Shown: positions 18,667-34,429 of the stretch, piece by piece
Layout: every line of letters starts with the position of its first letter
Position numbering within the stretch: the first letter of the stretch is position 1
Virus record (IMG/VR): IMGVR_UViG_3300040770_000162
DNA: 64,000 nt
Origin: a virus
Strand: one strand, 5' to 3'
Translations under genes and position numbers: made by a program
Notes under the pieces: model-generated
What the model saw: the letters and a program-made list of their open reading frames with translations, nothing else
Database searches by the model: none
Told to the model about the DNA's origin: nothing

Positions 18667-21600
18667 ATGAGTAAAGAATGTGGATTTATAGTAAACGGTC
18701 AAAAATCACCGTTATATAATAAAATACTAGAAGGTTATAATGGAAATGAAGAGTTATCAATAATTCTTCATTCCCGTTTAAAAAGTGATGAACAATTTAT
18801 AAACGATTTTGGTGATTGGGTAAATGACTACGGTAAAGAACCTTCACAACAATCTGTAAATTATGAATATCAACCTGGTATTTTAAGAGTTGAAGAAAAT
18901 GGTGAACCTAAACTTTTTAAAAATGAAAAGAATGGTAATTACTATTACATAGACAAAGATTTAAACAAAGTTGAAATTATTGAAAATCAAACGTCTTTAA
19001 GTTCGTTATTTGATAATTCACAAATTGAGAGACTTACTGATGTTTTAGTTTATGATTTTTTTAAAAATAATTTAAATATTAATTTTGAAGAAATAGATTT
19101 AACTGGTAATTATACTTCAATTAGAGATCGTATTACTATTAAATTAAATGAAAGAATTAATACGTTTAATAAAAGTGGTAATGAAAATTTTGAAGTGACT
19201 GCAGAGTTGTTGGAAATTGCATTAGAAGAAAATTTAGATGAGTTAGTTAAAAATGTAACTAATGCTTTAGAATCGTATAAAATTAAATCTTCTAAAGCTT
19301 TTAACGATAATGATGAAGATACTGATTTAGCTGATACTGAAGATAATGAAAATTCTAGAGATGTTAGTTTTGGTAAAGCATCTTTTGAAATGTCAACTAA
19401 AGGTAATGTTTCAGCAAATGTTAAACTAAGATTATCATTAATTACAAATACATCATTTAAAGACACTTTTTTAAATGATAGTACATATCTAACTTTTGAT
19501 GAAGTTTATGCTTCTTTACTACCTTATTTGACTAATCAAGTATCTGTTATTAAAGATGATAAACAAGAAGATAAGTTTGAAATTTATAAATCTATAATTT
19601 TACAACTTCAAAATAAAAAACCTTATTTTGCAGAACTTTATCAATTGTTAAGTCAACCTACAATATCTGAAAATATTAAAAATGAATTTGTTCAAGCTTT
19701 TAGTTTAGACATAAACAACTTTAATACTTCAGAATACAGTTTTGAAGAATCTAAAGATGAAAAAACTTGGACTAAGTTAGAAGATGGTAAAATAGTTAAA
19801 CCATTTGTTAAAAGCTTTAAAACTATGAATATCTCTGAAACTGGTAAAAAAGAGACAGATGTATTTAATGAATGGAATAAAAATTTTAAAGAAAAGTTTG
19901 TAACTGAAGGTAAACAAGGTTTATTAATATCACAGGAAAATAAAGATAAACTATCTTTAGTAAAATCAAATTTAAATAAATTAAAGTATTCAGAACCTGA
20001 TGTAGTTAATAAAATAATTACAGAATTAAGAAACTTGGGTATTGAAACTACTATTAAAGGTTTTAATCACTTTTTAGATGACTTTAAGTTAATTAATAAC
20101 GATAATGAAATATCTAATAAAAAGTTTAATAAATTAATATCTGATTTAAATTATTTAGTAGATAGAATTAATACTAATGTAAATAAGAATTTTAATAGTA
20201 TATTATCAGATCAACCTATAACTAAACAATTAGCTAAAGCCGAATCTTTTTACATATCAGAAGGTTCTGATGCGTCTGTATTTACAGCAGGTAAACAAAA
20301 GTGGGTTTATTCATATCCGTCATATTTATCTAATACTATTAAATCTTGGAAAAAAGATAGAAATATTTTATCAAAACATTATGAAATATCTAAATACAAT
20401 TTAGGTTCAGATTGGATGCAATATTTACTAGCGTTAGGTGACACATATCAAGTTGATGAATTTGAAAGTGATGACGTTCAAGAAGCTTTAAGAATTGAAG
20501 AATCCAAAAAACGTATAGACGCTTTGGATTTATATACATTTAATACTTATCAATTGGAAGGTGATTCTAGAAATGGTAAAGACGGTAAAACAATTTCTAA
20601 AGAAGAATATATTTCTGATACAATTAATAAAGTATTAGGTTTTACTAAAAATGTTCAATCATACTACAGAACTACTACTCCTGCGGATAAAGGTACACAA
20701 TACGAAATAGCAATTGGTAGAAGCATTACAACTAACGCTAGATATGGTGACGGTAACCGTGATATTGTAATTGATGACAAAGCTGTAGATATTGTATTTA
20801 AATATTTTGATGCTGAATATCAACGTATGAAATTTGAACGTGAGTTTAAAAATGATGCTAAAAATGCAGATAAATTAAGAGTTTATTATCATTTAGGTGC
20901 GGGTCACGCTTTTAAATCACAATTGTTTCCAGCATTAAATTATGATAAAATTAAGGATACTTTAAAAGATTCAAATTTAGATTTTAAAGATATTTATAAT
21001 GAAAAAGGTGAAGCATATTTAAGTACTCTTAGAAATTCAATATTTGAAGATGCTATTAAAACTTACATTGTAAATGAACTATCTAATGGTATTCAAGAAA
21101 CTCTAGATAATTTAATTAAGACTAAAATATTTGAAGAAAATAGCGATGGAATTGCAAATAGAGAATTAGATAATGATATATGGAATTCTTATGGTACAAA
21201 TAATGCTTTAAAAGCCTCTGCAGATTTTTATATTAATTCTTTAATATCACATGTTGAATATTCTAAAATGTTTTCAGGTGATATTGCTTACTATAAAAAT
21301 GCAGTAGATTATAAAAAACGTGTACCAGCAACATACACTGATGGTTTATATCAAAGACTTGATGAAGAAAATAAAGATGTAAATATCGCAGTAATTGAAA
21401 GTGTTGAAATAAATGAACCATTTTTACCTGAATTAACAGAATTGTTAGGTGAAGACCTAGCTAATAAATATATTAGTGTAAATGCTGCAGATGCTCAGGC
21501 TTGGATTACACCTGCTAGATGGAAAATTCTAATGTCATCTATTGGAAAATGGAATGATACTTACGAATCAGCTTATCAAAAATTAATTGGTGAAAATACT

Positions 21601-22770
21601 GAACCATTTACAGAAAAAGAATTAAAAGCTGTTGCACCACCTGTAAAAGGAGTTTATTTTCAAACAATAGATGGTGTACCAACATTTCTTAAATATTCAC
21701 AAGCTGTATTAAGTCCTAGATTACGTAAAGGTAATAATCTTGAAAAGATTTATAATAAGATGGTTGCTCAAAATATTGATGAGTTAGTTACGTTTGACGC
21801 AATTAAAGTAGGTTCTAACAAACCGACTAAAATTCACGATGATAATGGTCAACTTTTAGATAATTTTGAATTTACACCGTTTACAATACCTTCTAGTGGT
21901 TGGAAATTACAACAAGATTTACCTGTTAAATTAATGCACGATACTGATGTGGGTTCTCAAATTCAGAAAAACATATTTCAAGGTTTAGCATTTAATTTAG
22001 ATAAAATGTTTGATTTAGATAATAGTGAAGTTGAGGGTAATCAAATAGTAGAAAATATTGCTAACACAATTGGTGAATTATCTAATAGAGGTTATGAATC
22101 ATTATTAAAAGAATTTAATATTGCACCTAACGGAACTATTACAAATGTTGAAGGATTTTATAATTCTATTATTGCAGAATTAAAATCAACAGGTGGTTCT
22201 CAAAATGTAATTGATGCTTTAGAATCAGAAATGAGTATCTACGGTGTTGCTCAAGCTAAAGAAAAACTTGAAAACATATTTAGTTCTATATTTACTAAAA
22301 GAATGCTTAAAATCAAAACTAATGGTGGTTCATTTATTCAAATGAGTAACTTTGGTTTTAATAAAGATGAAGCTAACGAGCAAAATGTAATTTGGAATCC
22401 TAGGTCATTAAAAACTACACATCCACCACAATTCCTTAAAGATGAAAACGGTGAGTTTGTATTATCTGAAAATGGTAAAAAAATTATTAGACCTGGTGGT
22501 ATATTAATATCAGGTAGTTTTATTGCTAAATATATTCCAGATTATGCTACTAAATATACACCAGAACAATTATTTGGTTATACTGATGAAAATGGTAAAT
22601 TTATAGAAGGGGTTATTGATAGAAAGATTCTTGAAAATATTATTGGATATAGAATTCCTAATCAAGGTTTGTCATCTAATGATGCTTTAGAAATAGTAGG
22701 TATTCTTCCTGAAGAAAATGGAGATACTGTTGTAGCTTATACAGGTATTACTACTAAAACTGGCTCTGAT
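18667..22770 (+). CDS. virion RNA polymerase, exon 1 (crAss-like two-barrel RNAP)
   Basis: 1368 codons ending ...TGITTKTGSD. Joining to exon 2 creates DFDID. Size and giant-ORF context match crAss-like virion RNAPs (from memory). Confidence 0.65.
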
Positions 22771-23730
22771 AAAATATCACTGTTTGAGCCAGTATAAAAA
22801 ATAAAAATATTGTTAATTGCTGGAAACTCCTAAAGCTTTGTAAACTACAACGTAATTTGAAAAAATAAACGTGAATGTTAAAAATTACAAAGATGGCGAA
22901 TGGACAATCAGCAGCCGAGTTCCTTTAAAATGGAAAGGGTTCAACGACTAATACTTAACTTAAAGATTCCTATATGGATATCACAATCATACAATGAAAA
23001 CAAAATTTAACAAAGAATCAAGAAATTTGATTATTGGAATGTTATTAGGAGACGGAACAATTTCTAATAATTACGTGTTTAAACTTTCACACGGATACAA
23101 ACAAAAAGAATATTTAGAATGGAAAATAAACCTTCTAAATAAATATGGAATAAAAAATAACGGTTTGAAAGAATATATTTCAACTTGTGGTTATAATTTA
23201 GGTTCTATAGTTTATTATAGTCAAATGAGTGTTATACCATTTATGAAAGTTCTTAGAAGAGTTATTTATAAACCTATTAAAAATTACGCTAATCGTAAAA
23301 TCTTAAATAGATTAAATCCTTTAGGTATTGCGATTTGGTATATGGATGATGGTCATATTAATATTAGAAAAACTGATGATAAAATTCACGGTTTCTATAT
23401 TAAAATAGCTACTTGTTTATATAAAGAACAAAATCAAGTTATTATAGATTACTTTAAAGAAGTTTGGGATATATCTTTTTATCAATTTAAAGAAGGTAAG
23501 CCTGGAAAAAATACTTATTCGCTTTGTTGTGGTACACAAGAAGGTGTTAAGTTTATAGAATTAATTAAACCTTATGTAGAATCTTGTCCGTCGATGATAT
23601 ATAAAATTCAGTATGATTTAAGTCAACGTAAAAATTGCGTTGCGTAGAGATTAAAATCTCGAAACACAATACACTAGAAATAGTGAAGATATAGTCTGAT
23701 CTCATATGAAAGTATGAGTTAACACAAATG
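22771..23730 (+). mobile_element. group I intron (960 nt)
   Basis: Exon 1 ends in U and the intron ends in G. Guide GTTTGAGCC (22782-22790) pairs with exon GGCTCTGAT, with U.G at the splice site. GAAGATATAGTCTGA (23685-23699) resembles the conserved P7/S element. A terminal hairpin CTCATA/TATGAG is present. Splicing restores the reading frame. Confidence 0.75.
22994..23647 (+). CDS. LAGLIDADG homing endonuclease (intron-encoded)
   Basis: Two LAGLIDADG motifs: LIIGMLLGDGTIS and LGIAIWYMDDGHI. Confidence 0.8.
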   Translation: MKTKFNKESRNLIIGMLLGDGTISNNYVFKLSHGYKQKEYLEWKINLLNKYGIKNNGLKEYISTCGYNLGSIVYYSQMSVIPFMKVLRRVIYKPIKNYANRKILNRLNPLGIAIWYMDDGHINIRKTDDKIHGFYIKIATCLYKEQNQVIIDYFKEVWDISFYQFKEGKPGKNTYSLCCGTQEGVKFIELIKPYVESCPSMIYKIQYDLSQRKNCVA

Positions 23731-26037
23731 TTTGATATTGATAAAATGTACATGATGTTTGCATCATACAGATTAGAAAATGATAAATTAATATATGAAA
23801 CTTTTGATAATTCTAAACCTGAATCAGAACAATCTGAGGAAGCTTTACAAAATAGATTAGTAGAATTATATAAATCTGTTTTAATTAACGAAAATGTTAT
23901 TGGTGAAGTAATGACACCTGTAGATTTTACACACGTTAAAGATGATATAATGCATTTTGGTGATAAAACATCTAGTGGTAATTTATCTACATTTGATCCA
24001 TTAAAAGATATTGATACTAAATACGATTTCTTATCAGGTAAAGCAGGTGTAGGTCAACAAGCTAATTCATTAATGGATTATGTGTTAGGTAGTATGGGTA
24101 ATTTAAGTATTACTAATTTTAATGTACCTAAAAGTAATTTAAGATTTGATCAAGAATATTCTGCAAAATTATCTAATGAAGATTTAGAATATTATGCTAA
24201 ACAATTAGATTTAAATCCTAATGAAGTTAAACAATTAGAATTTATTAAAATTGGACATTCTTTATCTGCAATTCTTAACGCATTTGTGGACATCGCTAAA
24301 GATCCATACATTACTAGAGGTAATTGGGTTACAATGACAACTAATACAGGTAATTTATTATTACGTAAAGGTGTACATCCATTTTATGTAAATGCTTTTT
24401 TAGCACAACCTATTATTAAAGAATATGTAGCATTTTCATCACAATATGAAGTTTCTGCGGGTCAAAGTTTAAGTACTGCTGATGAATTTATTAAACAAAG
24501 ATTTGGTAAAGACGTTTATGAAAATAGAAATAATTCTAATATATTTAATGAAAGTTTACAAACATTAAGAAGTGCTAAATTTTTAAGTAATACATCTTCA
24601 CAAATGAATGTATTTGCTACTTTTTTACAATACCAAGCTGCATCTAAAGCGATGAAAAAGAATATTGATGCTTCTAAATTTATGGTGAATGGTGTTGGAG
24701 GTAGTGTAAATTCATTAATAATTTCTAAAAATGCTGTAGATTCTATATTAGATGAAGAAGATAAATACAATCAATTAGAAGATAAAACAGAGTTTAAGAA
24801 AAATATTATATTAGGTTTTAAATCTAAATTTACAAACCCTAATGGTTCTGAAAGTATGTTTAGTAAATATTATAACAATGTTATTTTAAAATCTGAACAA
24901 ATTGTCAAAAGTAACCCTAAATTATTTTTTACAGGAAACAGTGTTATTCAAGAAACCTTTAATGAAATTTCAACTGATGTGAATAATGAACTATTATTAG
25001 ATAATGATTTTGGTAAAGATTTAAACAGAATGTTTTATAGTTATGTTATGTCAGGATTTAATTCTTTAAACATGTCTAGTGTTGAAAGAAAAGAATTGAC
25101 TTTAAAATTTAGTAATGAATTTGAGGCTTTTAAATTAGCAAATAAAGGTAAATATGCTATTATTGACGAACTTAATGTAAAACAAGGTGATAGTTTAGAA
25201 TTTATAGGTTTAAATAATAGAAAGAAATCTAAAGATTACGAAAGAAAGTTAACTAAATCATTTTTAGATTTGTTAAATAATGAAGAAGATTTTACTAACA
25301 AACTTATTAAATATTCTTATTTAACATCTGGATTTAATAATCACACTAGTCAATTTTTTACTATGATACCTACACAATGGTTTAATAGAAATAATATTAA
25401 CAGATATATTATTGACAAGTCTAAAGAATATGATAAATTAAATTTAGAAAATGATGATAACTTTATTGATCAATTTTATTTATCTAACTTAGAAAATACT
25501 AAATTTGTTAGACCTATTTCTCAAAAACAGGTATTACCAAAATCTGGAAGTCTTGAAGGATTTGTAATAAAAAATCCTGGTAAAGTAGGTTATTTTAGAG
25601 TTGGTAAAGATCCACAAGGTATTAATCCTGATACATATTATAAACTTATTGGATATAATAAAGATTATCAAGGTATTTATACTAGATTTATTTACAACAT
25701 TAATGATGAACTAACTCAAATTAAACCACTTAATGTTAAAGATAAAAAAGGTAATAGAATTATTAATTATGATGTAAACGGTATTAACCTTAAACCATTA
25801 ACTGAAACAGCACCTAAACTTGTTGAAAGCATTAATAAAGTTAAATTAGCTAATTTATATTCTAATGTAGTTTATAACAGAAATGTGTTTTACAGAGAAA
25901 ACGTTATTATTAAAAAAGAAGATGATGTTAAGATTATAGAGACACCTAAAGAAATTACAACTGAAACTAAACTTATTGTTGAAGAAAATAATGATTGGAC
26001 TAAAGAAGATAATAATGATACTTGTGTACCATTTTAA
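23731..26037 (+). CDS. virion RNA polymerase, exon 2
   Basis: 768 codons starting FDIDKMY, in frame with exon 1 after splicing. The ORF-track ATG at 23728 is made of the last three intron nucleotides. Confidence 0.65.
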   Translation, partial: FDIDKMYMMFASYRLENDKLIYETFDNSKPESEQSEEALQNRLVELYKSVLINENVIGEVMTPVDFTHVKDDIMHFGDKTSSGNLSTFDPLKDIDTKYDFLSGKAGVGQQANSLMDYVLGSMGNLSITNFNVPKSNLRFDQEYSAKLSNEDLEYYAKQLDLNPNEVKQLEFIKIGHSLSAILNAFVDIAKDPYITRGNWVTMTTNTGNLLLRKGVHPFYVNAFLAQPIIKEYVAFSSQYEVSAGQSLSTADEFIKQRFGKDVYENRNNSNIFNESLQTLRSAKFLSNTSSQMNVFATFLQYQAASKAMKKNIDASKFMVNGVGGSVNSLIISKNAVDSILDEEDKYNQLEDKTEFKKNIILGFKSKFTNPNGSESMFSKYYNNVILKSEQIVKSNPKLFFTGNSVIQETFNEISTDVNNELLLDNDFGKDLNRMFYSYVMSGFNSLNMSSVERKELTLKFSNEFEAFKLANKGKYAIIDELNVKQGDSLEFIGLNNRKKSKDYERKLTKSFLDLLNNEEDFTNKLIKYSYLTSGFNNHTSQFFTMIPTQWFNRNNINRYIIDKSKEYDKLNLENDDNFIDQFYLSNLENTKFVRPISQKQVLPKSGSLEGFVIKNPGKVGYFRVGKDPQGINPDTYYKLIGYNKDYQGIYTRFIYNINDELTQIKPLNVKDKKGNRIINYDVNGINLKPLTETAPKLVESINKVKLANLYSNVVYNRNVFYRENVIIKKEDDVKIIETPKEITTETKLIVEENNDWTKEDNNDTCVPF

Positions 26038-31951: not shown

Positions 31952-32360
31952 TTAATTGTTTTTCTAATTTTAATATTGAACTTTTATGAGATTCTATTTT
32001 TTTCAAAATATTATTTCTAATTTCATTTTTAGATAGAATAATTTCTTCCAGTATAGAAATTTCTTCACCTAATTCTTCATCACATATTGATTGATCTTTT
32101 CTATAGGAAGATCCTCTCACATGATAAGTGTTTCCTAGTATTTCAGACGTATAATCACAATGAACATAGCTTGAATCAACTTTTTCACTATAGTCACCAG
32201 CATCTTTTATACACTCTCCTAATGGGATATGTAATAAATTGTCTTCATATTCTGTAAATTCATATGATTTATCCCAGTCAGGTAAATCTTTAAGAATTTT
32301 AGTTACTAATTCTTTAATTTCATTTTGAGTTAAAACTCTATATTTATATTTTTTACTCAT
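31944..32360 (-). CDS. hypothetical protein
   Basis: 138-aa ORF that overlaps both neighbours by 8 nt. Confidence 0.5.
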   Translation of the reverse strand: MSKKYKYRVLTQNEIKELVTKILKDLPDWDKSYEFTEYEDNLLHIPLGECIKDAGDYSEKVDSSYVHCDYTSEILGNTYHVRGSSYRKDQSICDEELGEEISILEEIILSKNEIRNNILKKIESHKSSILKLEKQLNE

Positions 32361-32690
32361 TTCTTTCTAACATTTTTACATTTATTGCAGGATATGATTT
32401 GTAATTTTCTAATTTAAAATCTTGAATTTCAATATTAGATAATAAATTACTTAAACTACAAGTTTCTAAACCATAAGTTTTAATTCTATAATATTCAGCT
32501 CTATCTTCAATATTTAGTTCACATTTATTATATTTATCAACATCTCTACTTAATTGTTCTTTAACAGCATTTAAACTATTATCATACAAATGAACCTTAT
32601 TTAAGTTACCTTGTATACCTAATGCTTTATAACCAGTTACCTTCTCTAAAATCAACGCTAATGTAGCGTAGGAAGCTATGTTATAAGGTA
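32353..32690 (-). CDS. thyA: thymidylate synthase, exon 2
   Basis: After splicing it reads (L)PYNIASYATLALILEKVTGYK...G..HLYDNS...DFKLENYKSYPAINVKM, the conserved ThyA C-terminal half. Confidence 0.8.
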
Positions 32691-32836
32691 CATTGTGTTT
32701 ATTATTAGACGCAACTCTAATAACCTGTGAGATACACAGCACTATATTACTATAGTGTTCAGACTATATCATCTAAGATCAGCTTTTCCAACACCATAAG
32801 CTTGTGTTGTACTCCTTTCGGATAGTCGTTAGGCAT

Positions 32837-33556
32837 TTATTTATAATTATAATTTATAAACTTTTTATTTGGACTGTTTATTCTAAAACATATAGTAGTA
32901 ACATGGATTCCTAATTGTCTACTAGCTTCAGATAATGAAGAATATTCCATATTTTCAATAATTACAATTTTTGATTGTATACCGTTAAATTTACCTAAAG
33001 AAGATACTCTCATTTTATCTTTAGATTCTTTACTATGTGTTTTATTATAAAATGGATTATTTATTCCAGTTCTATCTTTACATTTATTACACTCAATAGT
33101 ATTACTATTAATTCTATTTCCACATTTACAAAAAGTTTTCCCACCTTTCCAATTAGAATTATTTTCTTTAAATCTTGGAAGTCTTTTTACATTTTGCAAT
33201 CTTTGTGTTGCATTTTTAATTAATTGCTCTCTATTTGGATGATTAGAAATCATATCACCACCAGTTGCTGTTTTTGAAACATTATATAAATCGTTAAAAT
33301 CAAGAAAATCTAAAATTTGTTGCTCTCGTTTAATATAATTAAATGATGTTTCAATGCAAATATATTCAAAATTTTCAAGACCGTGTTTATTAACAGATCT
33401 TTGTAAATGAATACAGTGATGTGTATTATTTTTTAATTCTCGAAAATGTCTCAATTTTCTTTTATGTAAATCTTTTGTAGAACCAATATAAAATTTACCA
33501 TTAATTTTGTTCAGGATTATATAAATATAACCAAATTTTATTATACTATTTTTCAT
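32837..33556 (-). CDS. GIY-YIG homing endonuclease, I-TevI-like architecture (intron-encoded)
   Basis: GYIYIILN...KFYIGST...R...E core, Cys4 linker CKCG...CNKC, a NUMOD3-like helix, and a C-terminal HTH (YSSLSEASRQLGIHVTTI). Confidence 0.8.
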   Translation of the reverse strand: MKNSIIKFGYIYIILNKINGKFYIGSTKDLHKRKLRHFRELKNNTHHCIHLQRSVNKHGLENFEYICIETSFNYIKREQQILDFLDFNDLYNVSKTATGGDMISNHPNREQLIKNATQRLQNVKRLPRFKENNSNWKGGKTFCKCGNRINSNTIECNKCKDRTGINNPFYNKTHSKESKDKMRVSSLGKFNGIQSKIVIIENMEYSSLSEASRQLGIHVTTICFRINSPNKKFINYNYK

Positions 33557-33560
33557 AGTA

Positions 33561-33568
33561 CAAAGATA
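33561..33568 (-). promoter_or_regulatory. -7-box-like TATCTTTG inside the intron, upstream of the endonuclease ORF
   Basis: The minus strand reads GTTTATCTTTGTACTATG. The box ends 4 nt before the ATG, so a transcript from it would be leaderless or nearly so. Confidence 0.3.
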
Positions 33569-33696
33569 AACTAATTATATGGTAATTCCAAATAAATATC
33601 GATTTATTTTATATTTTTTTTAATTATAAAATTTAGCACGGGATTGTCCTCGCAGGATATCCCCCGTTTAACTGATTTTTACTTGGGCAACCTTTC

Positions 33697-34429
33697 ACCC
33701 AAGGAATGTGTCAACACTTCTTTGATTCCAATGAAGTTCAAATCCATATTCTGTTACTAAACTAGAATTTAGATACACATCAAGACGTTCTTGTTTATTT
33801 AGAGGTCTTACAACTACTTGAAATCCATAATGACATGGTGGTAAAGCCATATCTGGTAAATCACCAGGATTCCAAGCATTTACAATATGATCTGTAGCTA
33901 AAGGTTTTACTTTAAGATTATGAATTAGTCTTGCAATTTGATCTACTGAATTTGCAATCCAATTTCCGTTATTTTTATCATAATTATGTTTTGCTCCTAC
34001 AAAACTTCTCCATTGCTTACCATAAACAAGTCCTAAATCTCCAAGTTTATAATAACGAGTACTCATTGACAACTTGTCAGCTTTTATTCGTTCAATAAAC
34101 TCTTTAATATCCATTGGTATACCACCTATAAAATCTTTAGTTTTTACATAATAATTATAAGCATCTTTATTCCAAATATTGCAACCATTATCTACAAGAT
34201 ATTTAATATTTGTACCACCACGTAAAAACCATATTAACTCTGTTACAACATTTTTGTAATGGAGTTTTTTTGTAGTTATTGCTGGAAAACTATCTTTAAA
34301 TTCATGTTTAAAAGTATGTGATAATATTTCTAACCTGTTAACACCTTTTCTATTTGGGTCTTCATATGTATAACCTTCTAAAAGTATTTTTTTAAGAAGA
34401 TTATGATATGTTACATCTATTTTACTCAT
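33697..34429 (-). CDS. thyA: thymidylate synthase, exon 1
   Basis: Contains AWNPGDLPDMALPPCHYGFQV (catalytic Cys) and ...HWNQRSVDTFLG. The ORF stops at a TGA created by the intron's first two nucleotides. Confidence 0.85.

Follow-up and report, generated by a model that had tools for sequence, protein, structure and literature searches.

The junction between the FLG and LP codons of the thymidylate synthase gene thyA is a classic intron target (PMC2853131), at which the td intron of phage T4 carries the gene of the endonuclease I-TevI. The site bound by this enzyme spans about 20 bp with the insertion point at its centre, and the cuts fall 23 and 25 nt upstream at a CNNNG motif. Expression of I-TevI is controlled in three ways, by an internal late promoter, by an operator that mimics the homing site without the cleavage motif and by a hairpin that forms on read-through RNA only (PMC2988022). 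In the available part of a study of crAss-like gut phages, group I introns are described in the major capsid protein, PolB, primase and ATPase genes, together with a LAGLIDADG open reading frame (ORF) in the transcription block; a thymidylate synthase intron is not mentioned in that part (PMC7886860, Yutin et al. 2021). The window analysed here is a stretch of 64,000 nt of the virus record IMGVR_UViG_3300040770_000162, and all coordinates are positions in it. Its thyA gene lies on the minus strand and is divided at the FLG/LP site by an insert of 1006 nt.

The anatomy, homology and conservation of the insert were observed directly, and they make it very probable that thyA of a Crassvirales phage close to Cellulophaga phage phi14:2 harbours here a mobile group I intron (subgroup IA2) with an endonuclease of the I-TevI family. 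Splicing, cleavage during homing, promoter use and repression are predicted from these observations. A preceding sequence-only reading of the window had proposed a td-type intron with an I-TevI-like endonuclease at this site; the proposal held, with the qualification that the likeness to td is at the level of the intron family. The gene is composed as follows.

34429..33697, minus strand: thyA exon 1, 244 codons plus the first base of Leu245, 3' end CTT GGG T (from the ORF list, the spliced translation and Pfam PF00303)
33696..32691, minus strand: group I (IA2) intron, 1006 nt, 5' end GAAAGG, 3' end CACAATG (from the sequence and the covariation alignment)
32690..32353, minus strand: thyA exon 2, from TA CCT TAT AAC up to the stop codon (found as an intact ORF in 10 relatives that have the intron)

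Without splicing, the exon 1 ORF (34429..33695, minus strand) comprises 244 codons, ends in NQRSVDTFLG and is closed by a TGA made of the exon T of CTT GGG T and the GA of the intron. The insert begins with GAAAGGUUGCCCAAG, and its last base, at 32691, is G. Exon 2 starts with TA CCT TAT AAC ATA GCT TCC TAC, which is translated as (L)PYNIASY. When T33697 was joined to TA32690, an uninterrupted frame of 1071 nt encoding a ThyA of 356 amino acids was obtained, in which T+TA forms the codon of Leu245. The predicted ligated-exon junction is TTCCTTGGGT/TACCTTATAAC (GGGT/TACC; a slash between bases marks the junction here and below). Residues 7-351 of the joined protein matched positions 2-264 of the 266 positions of the Thymidylat_synt profile PF00303 (E 2.7e-72), and the PCH, RSxD, NIASY and H.Y motifs were present. 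The intron-made stop codon, the resumption of ThyA at PYNIASY after 1006 nt, the Leu codon and the terminal G had all been read from the sequence beforehand and agreed with the present analysis to the base. A different splice register, GGG/...U/GUA with a Val codon, was rejected because it needs G at position -1 and U as the final intron base, both of which are against the rules for group I introns. In all 10 intron-bearing genomes read, exon 2 was an intact ORF of 100-121 codons with conserved ThyA motifs and a frame that fits the predicted splice. The ratio of nonsynonymous to synonymous substitution rates (dN/dS) of exon 2 was dropped, because synonymous sites were nearly saturated and dN is inflated by a hypervariable segment in the middle; ORF intactness and motifs were used instead.

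The ribozyme was drawn by hand on the window intron and consists of the following elements.

33682..33703, minus strand: P1, exon CUUGGGU (33703..33697) paired with the guide GCCCAAG (33688..33682), 7 bp
33694..33690, minus strand: AAGGU of P10 in the P1 loop (insert bases 3-7), paired with exon 2 ACCUU at 32689..32685
33675..33671, minus strand: 5' strand of P3, UCAGU
33667..33638, minus strand: P4 (ACGGGG with UCCCGU) and P5 (UCCU with AGGA)
32849..32833, minus strand: 3' strands of P6a and P6, part of the 3' core at 32849..32762
32827..32822, minus strand: P7, GACUAU
32821..32814, minus strand: P7.1, CCGAAAGG, covarying
32809..32789, minus strand: P7.2, CAACAC...GUGUUG, covarying
32783..32779, minus strand: 3' strand of P3, GCUGA
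32778..32772, minus strand: mini-P8, UC-UUA-GA, followed by J8/7
32767..32762, minus strand: P7', AUAGUC
32757..32740, minus strand: P9
32739..32725, minus strand: P9.1
32723..32702, minus strand: P9.2
after P9.2, up to the terminal G at 32691, minus strand: 3' tail

All core helices from P3 to P9 are present in canonical order, and P7.1 and P7.2 between P7 and the 3' strand of P3 are hallmarks of subgroup IA2; P8 is far below its usual size. For comparison, relatives were gathered from IMG/VR, JGI metagenomes and other assemblies (numbered loci, L003 and so on). Twelve introns at the FLG/LP site of thyA, including T4 td, were aligned after deletion of their ORFs in silico, and the structure of the window intron was projected onto the alignment. 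Standard pairs were found in 88% of the cells, compared with 35-44% when the 3' partners were slid by 1-3 columns. Both sides had changed in 37 of 77 pairs (mean of the shuffles, 27.3). The covariation score was 0.432, against 0.08-0.12 for the slid structures, and was reached by none of 500 shuffles. Covariation was seen in P3, P4, P5, P6, P6a, P9 and P9.2, while P7 was invariant; compensatory changes were numerous in P3, P6a, P7.2, P9 and P9.2.

The 7-bp P1 with its U.G wobble had been recognised in the first inspection and was recovered unchanged; the splice-site pair is U33697.G33688, and U.G occupies this position in 11 of the 12 aligned introns. P1 tracks the codons of the exon, as CUUGGGU pairs with GCCCAAG in the window, UUUGGGU with GCUCAAG in L021 and CCUCGGU with GCUGAGG in L245. 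P10 likewise changes together with the exon 2 sequence across the relatives. The pre-mRNA would fold into a ribozyme core in which guanosine attacks 3' of the U in the U.G pair of P1. The terminal G and P10 (ACCUU with AAGGU) would set the 3' splice site, and joining of the exons would restore Leu245 and the complete ThyA.

The loop of P6a is filled by an ORF, for which a cleavage site was predicted in exon 1.

33556..32837, minus strand: homing endonuclease ORF, 239 amino acids, in the P6a loop, with GIY-YIG domain, linker, Cys4 finger, minor-groove helix and helix-turn-helix
33720..33724, minus strand: predicted cleavage motif CAAAG (CNNNG) at positions -28..-24 in exon 1, on Gln-Arg codons, after the I-TevI rule (PMC2988022)

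Pfam matches of the 239-residue product were GIY-YIG (PF01541, E 5e-10), I-TevI_ZnF (PF22635, E 1.8e-8) and NUMOD3 (E 2.4e-6). Both solved domains of I-TevI were also matched, 1mk0 with E 2e-11 and 1i3j, the DNA-binding domain, with E 9e-11 over residues 133-230. The domain assignment made earlier from the translation (GIY-YIG core, Cys4 finger, NUMOD3-like helix and helix-turn-helix) is thereby borne out. Over its full length the protein was 33% identical to I-TevI (E 2e-32). In an alignment of 16 sequences, 15 members of the clade and I-TevI, the catalytic residues Tyr12, Tyr23, Arg33, His37, Glu78 and Asn92 were invariant in all 16, as were Cys145, Cys156 and Cys159, and Cys143 was nearly so. 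T4 td has CAACG at -27..-23 on the same Gln-Arg codons as CAAAG of the window, and the phase-0 relatives have CAACG or CAGAG at -27..-23. By homology, the endonuclease would bind an intronless CTTGGGTTACC thyA across the junction and cut about 24-28 bp upstream at CAAAG; repair would then copy the intron into the empty allele.

Three features around the start of the endonuclease ORF resemble the control region of I-TevI.

33592..33561, minus strand: promoter-like site TTTG-N20-TAnnTTTG (TTTG-N20-TATCTTTG), directly upstream of the endonuclease ATG
within 33592..33561, minus strand: operator-like homing-site mimic TTGGAATTACCATATAATTAG, lying over the -33 box and the spacer and resembling the intronless junction TTGGGTTACCTTATAACATAG
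33563..33541, minus strand: hairpin UUGUACUAU-GAAAA-AUAGUAUAA, 9 bp, enclosing the endonuclease AUG, its 5' strand overlapping the -7 box

The sigma-A consensus of Bacteroidota is TTTG / TAnnTTTG, which the promoter-like site fits. In 10 of 13 introns of the clade the site recurs at this position, its boxes again 20 nt apart; it is absent from T4. The mimic stood out from shuffled sequences with z values of 3.4 in the window, 8.4 in L151, 4.7 in L243 and 4.9 in L248. By the same shuffle method the T4 mimic, an operator established by experiment, reached a z value of 2.3. No CNNNG was present at cleavage distance upstream of the window's mimic. The AUG hairpin had a folding energy of -7.4 kcal/mol (z -4.6); equivalent hairpins were found in L242, with compensatory changes, and in L152, L151 and L245, and none in L021. 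Promoter, mimic and hairpin appear to match the three control layers of I-TevI. The endonuclease would be transcribed from its own promoter of the Bacteroidota type, and its binding to the mimic over this promoter, at a site free of the cleavage motif, would lead to autorepression. In read-through pre-mRNA the hairpin would hide the AUG; in promoter-initiated transcripts it would be truncated.

A mimic of this kind also accounts for an odd gene call in L248, where the called endonuclease, P0040, starts with MDTFLGLPF. These residues are translated from the homing-site mimic within the intron (L248, 2001-2030), which is close enough to the junction sequence for the gene caller to extend the ORF through it. 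MDTFLGLPF does not belong to ThyA nor, probably, to the endonuclease, which most likely begins with the ATG at L248 2049.

P2 is absent throughout the clade, the linker between P1 and P3 being UAAAAA only, and in the window, L150, L151, L243, L240 and L152 only UC-UUA-GA or UC-AUA-GA is left of P8. These 2 bp correspond to the base of a P8 of 4-8 bp in L021, L235, L245-247, L248 and T4. The span from P7 to P7' is 69 nt in the window, compared with 73-85 nt in most family members with P7.1 and P7.2. Reading the P7.2 hairpin as P8 was rejected, as the 3' strand of P3 (GCUGA) comes later and the order P7-P7.1-P7.2-P3'-P8-P7' is that of T4 and of all relatives. The loop of P2 docks on P8 in some group I introns, which might link the loss of the two. 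A comparably tiny P8 was found in other IA2 introns (L107, L165, L182, L183, L160 and L192). It also occurred in a different type of intron on jumbo-phage contigs of about 250-380 kb in IMG/VR (L155, L157, L161, L173, L185 and L215), which have many short group I introns without P7.1 and P7.2; in some of these, 33-34 nt separate AACGACUA from AUAGUC, with nearly no space for P8. A tiny or absent P8 seems to be common in phage introns. A literature search on group I introns without P8 returned nothing relevant, which is not proof that the feature is undescribed.

Several results weigh against a functional mobile intron. With a P8 of 2 bp and no P2, the ribozyme may be weakly active or dependent on a protein. 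The Rfam model RF00028 (Intron_gpI) gave no group I match in the window at the gathering score or at E<=10, so the group I check proposed with the first reading failed to return the intron. Among the controls, T4 td reached 40 bits, short of the 50-bit cut-off, and 68 bits were obtained for the intron of Aeromonas phage phiA047, which has no ORF; L232, an ORF-less intron of the window's own clade, was not matched. Because T4 td falls below the cut-off and a clade member is missed, the null result is uninformative, and the model is blind to this clade of introns. The promoter pattern was not enriched across the window (6 matches, 3.4 expected); as a window-wide signal it was dropped as not significant, and it was kept for its conserved position and spacer only. 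The mimic is missing in L240 and L235 and weak in L245-247 (z 0.2-1.6).

The small P8, the absent P2 and the empty Rfam search would also be expected of a decayed intron that no longer splices, so that thyA would be a split pseudogene or selection would act on the endonuclease alone; phage thyA may in addition be dispensable. This is very unlikely. The same mini-P8 occurs in L151, L243, L240 and L152, whose endonucleases are only 60-65% identical and whose splice phases differ, so that it is a stable trait and not recent damage. Every other helix still covaries, P1 and P10 follow the sequence of the exons, and exon 2 is intact with its ThyA motifs in 10 of 10 intron-bearing genomes.

The position of the functional intron favoured here was then compared with those of its relatives. 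The first reading had placed T4 td between the same Gly and Leu codons with an apparent offset of 1 nt, and this was correct, the T4 junction being one base further upstream in codon terms.

T4 junction: TTG GGT/CTA
L021, L235 and L245-248 junction: GGT/TTA
L151 and L243 junction: GGT/ATC
L240 junction: GGT/CTT
window, L150, L242 and L152 junction: CTT GGG T/TA

The last group is shifted by +1 nt in the 3' direction relative to T4 and all other relatives read. The exon end CUUGGGU is identical in T4 and the window and is read in a different codon register (TTC CTT GGG T/TA vs TTC TTG GGT/TTA). An intronless relative, L009, has exactly the shifted target, TTC CTT GGG TTA CCT TAT; an intronless target of the L009 type would be CAAAGAAGTGTTGACACATTCCTTGGGTTACCTTATAAC. 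The internal mimic of the window retains the spacing of the unshifted site, TTGG-NN-TTACC, which suggests that phase 0 is ancestral. Homing alone cannot move an intron by one base, because it copies the flanking exons of the donor. The intron may have reverse-spliced into an allele in which synonymous codons had displaced the P1 target, or a repair out of register may have been followed by the loss of a single T. It is conceivable, although doubtful, that a phage intron with an endonuclease gene was relocated in nature under RNA guidance, by reverse splicing, and that the shift records this event; the same clade would then also show an IA2 ribozyme working without P2 and with a P8 of 2 bp. Candidate RNA targets for reverse splicing of the excised intron would be CUUGGGUUACCU and UUGGGUUUACCU.

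Among isolated phages, the sole nucleotide match of the window was to Cellulophaga phage phi14:2 (Crassvirales, Steigviridae). A split ORF at 18667-26037 matched the catalytic subunit of the phi14:2 RNA polymerase and proteins of uncultured crAss-like phages; the check for crAss-like hallmarks consisted of this ORF and the nucleotide match. Together with thyA introns of phi14:2 relatives of about 95-102 kb, the intron forms a metagenomic clade. About 100 homologues of the endonuclease were found in metagenomes (E<=1e-10). In all 11 homologue contigs that were read the endonuclease was inside thyA, and 4 of these contigs were 95-100 kb long. Most ThyA relatives in IMG/VR are intronless. L232 (JGI Ga0307963_1022822) has a 270-nt thyA intron of the L021 type from whose P6a loop the endonuclease ORF is cleanly gone. 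The coexistence of intron-bearing, ORF-less and intronless alleles fits a homing element that cycles through gain, decay and loss. In L244-L247 the introns are 1204-1299 nt long and have, beside the P6a endonuclease, an extra ORF of 59-90 amino acids in the P9.1 loop (e.g. L247, 2338-2610), with a weak or faint match to DUF7205 in two of the four. In a scan of bacterial genomes, no Bacteroidota genome had a copy of the endonuclease closer than a partial match of 40% identity. The best bacterial match (52%) was L249, a 3.3-kb contig (CAUYTX010000195.1) of a 'Gammaproteobacteria' metagenome-assembled genome, which might be phage DNA binned with that genome.

In phi14:2 itself, the homologue of the window ThyA is g032 (L229, 2496-3572), which RefSeq names 'flavin-dependent thymidylate synthase, ThyX'. 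In the note of this gene PF00303, the ThyA family, is given, and the ThyX name looks wrong.

The window contains a second group I intron at about 22780-23730 on the plus strand, with a LAGLIDADG ORF at 22994-23647. It splits a gene of 1376 and 769 amino acids that matches the RNA polymerase catalytic subunit (gp66) of phi14:2 and crAss-like proteins. Its exon sequence ACTGGCTC pairs fully with GAGCCAGT; there is no obvious U.G pair, and the 5' splice site could not be fixed by eye. The two introns of the window do share GATATAGTCTGA and a 3' end of the form ...ACA(A)ATG, as had been noticed at the outset, but these are generic core motifs and indicate no special relationship.

The window intron was finally set against T4 td (L003, 2001-3016). 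Both interrupt the same gene at the same Gly-Leu junction, and both are IA2 introns with P7.1, P7.2 and P9.1-P9.2. The helices follow the same order (P1, P3-P6a, J6/7, P7-P7.2, P3', P8, J8/7, P7', P9-P9.2). P4 (ACGGGG with UCCCGU) is identical, as is the J6/7-P7 string AAAUGCCUAACGACUAUCC; J8/7 with P7' reads GAUAUAGUC. In both, a stop codon is met directly after the 5' splice site, and the codons that carry a CNNNG motif are the same. The endonuclease has the same domain order and lies in the P6a loop, with its 3' end running into the same P6-J6/7 sequence, and is accompanied by a promoter or promoter-like site within the intron, a mimic of the homing site and a hairpin at the start codon. 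The differences are the P2 of T4, which the window lacks; a P8 of 8 bp in T4 and 2 bp in the window; the insertion 1 nt further 3' in the window (GGG T/TA vs GGT/CTA); the late promoter of T4 compared with the promoter-like site of Bacteroidota type; and the Crassvirales host phage.

The resemblance of core strings to T4 td proposed in the first reading was upheld. T4 td carries TAAACGGGG...GACAATCCCGTGCTAAAT exactly and also GATATAGTCTG, followed by CTC where the window has AAC. These strings are not specific to td, because they are conserved motifs of the whole IA2 family; GATATAGTCTGA, for instance, was found in 34 of 122 family members sampled. Alignment with T4 td confirmed the same order of elements and the same strings, but blastn revealed no td-specific closeness of the ribozyme. 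When the two ribozyme halves of the window were compared with all collected loci, the crAss-like thyA introns were nearest. T4 td ranked 25th for the 5' half (77% over 44 nt) and gave no match to the 3' half. Ranked above it were introns of unrelated genes, from phiA047 (Aeromonas), a Vibrio phage and the IMG/VR loci L113, L104 and L107. A blastn search of isolated phages with the whole intron gave short family-level matches only, and T4 was not among the matches listed. Judged by sequence, the similarity to T4 td is one of family and is not specific.

Horizontal movement between T4-like coliphages and a crAss-like phage, or else independent invasion of the same site, had been offered as the possible histories. 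If the movement had been recent and direct, the window element would be a copy of td, as its presence in the same gene within 1 nt of the same site, its endonuclease of the same architecture in the same loop and identical strings such as AAATGCCTAACGACTATCC and GACAATCCCGTGCTAAAT might suggest. The endonuclease, however, is merely 33% identical to I-TevI, the ribozyme of T4 td stands behind introns of unrelated genes for the 5' half and is not matched by the 3' half, and P2, P8, promoter type and insertion phase all differ. A recent T4-to-crAss transfer is unsupported by these data and extremely improbable; an old composite element that has stayed tied to thyA fits them better.

The closest proteins in the phage database were the thyA-intron endonucleases of Klebsiella jumbo phage RCIP0023 (L147, 38% identity) and Bacillus phage SPbetaL1 (L148, 36%), whose introns occupy another thyA site than that of the window. 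In Salmonella phage SP01, a T5-like phage (L149, 1495-2268), a free-standing GIY-YIG homologue of about 35% identity was observed directly downstream of an uninterrupted thyA. As I-TevI (33-35% identity) is about as distant as the Klebsiella, SPbeta-like and T5-like homologues, the endonuclease lineage follows thyA across very different phages.

Free-standing homologues adjoining thyA in T5-like phages, homologues in thyA introns at other sites and an endonuclease lineage that follows thyA and not one particular intron are also what would be seen if an IA2 intron had invaded thyA independently and an I-TevI-like gene had entered its P6a loop later, the likeness to T4 being convergence on a conserved target. 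Such a separate arrival is unlikely. T4 and the clade have the same loop occupied by the ORF, the 3' end of the ORF enters the same P6-J6/7 sequence, and a homing-site mimic is found upstream of it in both, for which shared ancestry of the composite element is the simpler explanation. Common descent of intron and endonuclease together is favoured because the position of the ORF, the P6-J6/7 overlap and the regulatory features are all shared with T4.

The range of the td/I-TevI system is widened by these results to Bacteroidota phages of the order Crassvirales. The composite, in which a ribozyme is combined with an endonuclease and its three self-control layers, seems to be ancient and to have remained with a single conserved segment of thymidylate synthase. 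The gene calls are also corrected, since thyA would otherwise be entered as two fragments and a "hypothetical" ORF. As natural variants, the shifted insertion and the minimal P8 could be used to test the choice and change of insertion sites and the minimal size of the core. Nuclease domains of I-TevI are used in genome editors, for which diverged homologues with a known target would be useful material.

Compared with other thyA elements, the window intron shares its gene, ribozyme family and a homologous endonuclease with the introns at other sites (SPbeta-like phages, RCIP0023, IMG/VR L096 and L019/L020). These occupy at least two further positions in thyA, upstream of the SxDxFLG motif or, in L019/L020, near codon 72, and not the FLG/LP junction. 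I-BmoI of Bacillus mojavensis is likewise a GIY-YIG endonuclease in a group I intron of thyA, a likeness drawn from its description and not from a comparison of sequences. An element of this kind is well known; what is new is the phage lineage and the shift by 1 nt. The +1 phase, the minimal core and the apparently re-tooled control in the style of I-TevI are read from sequence and merit a closer look by specialists.

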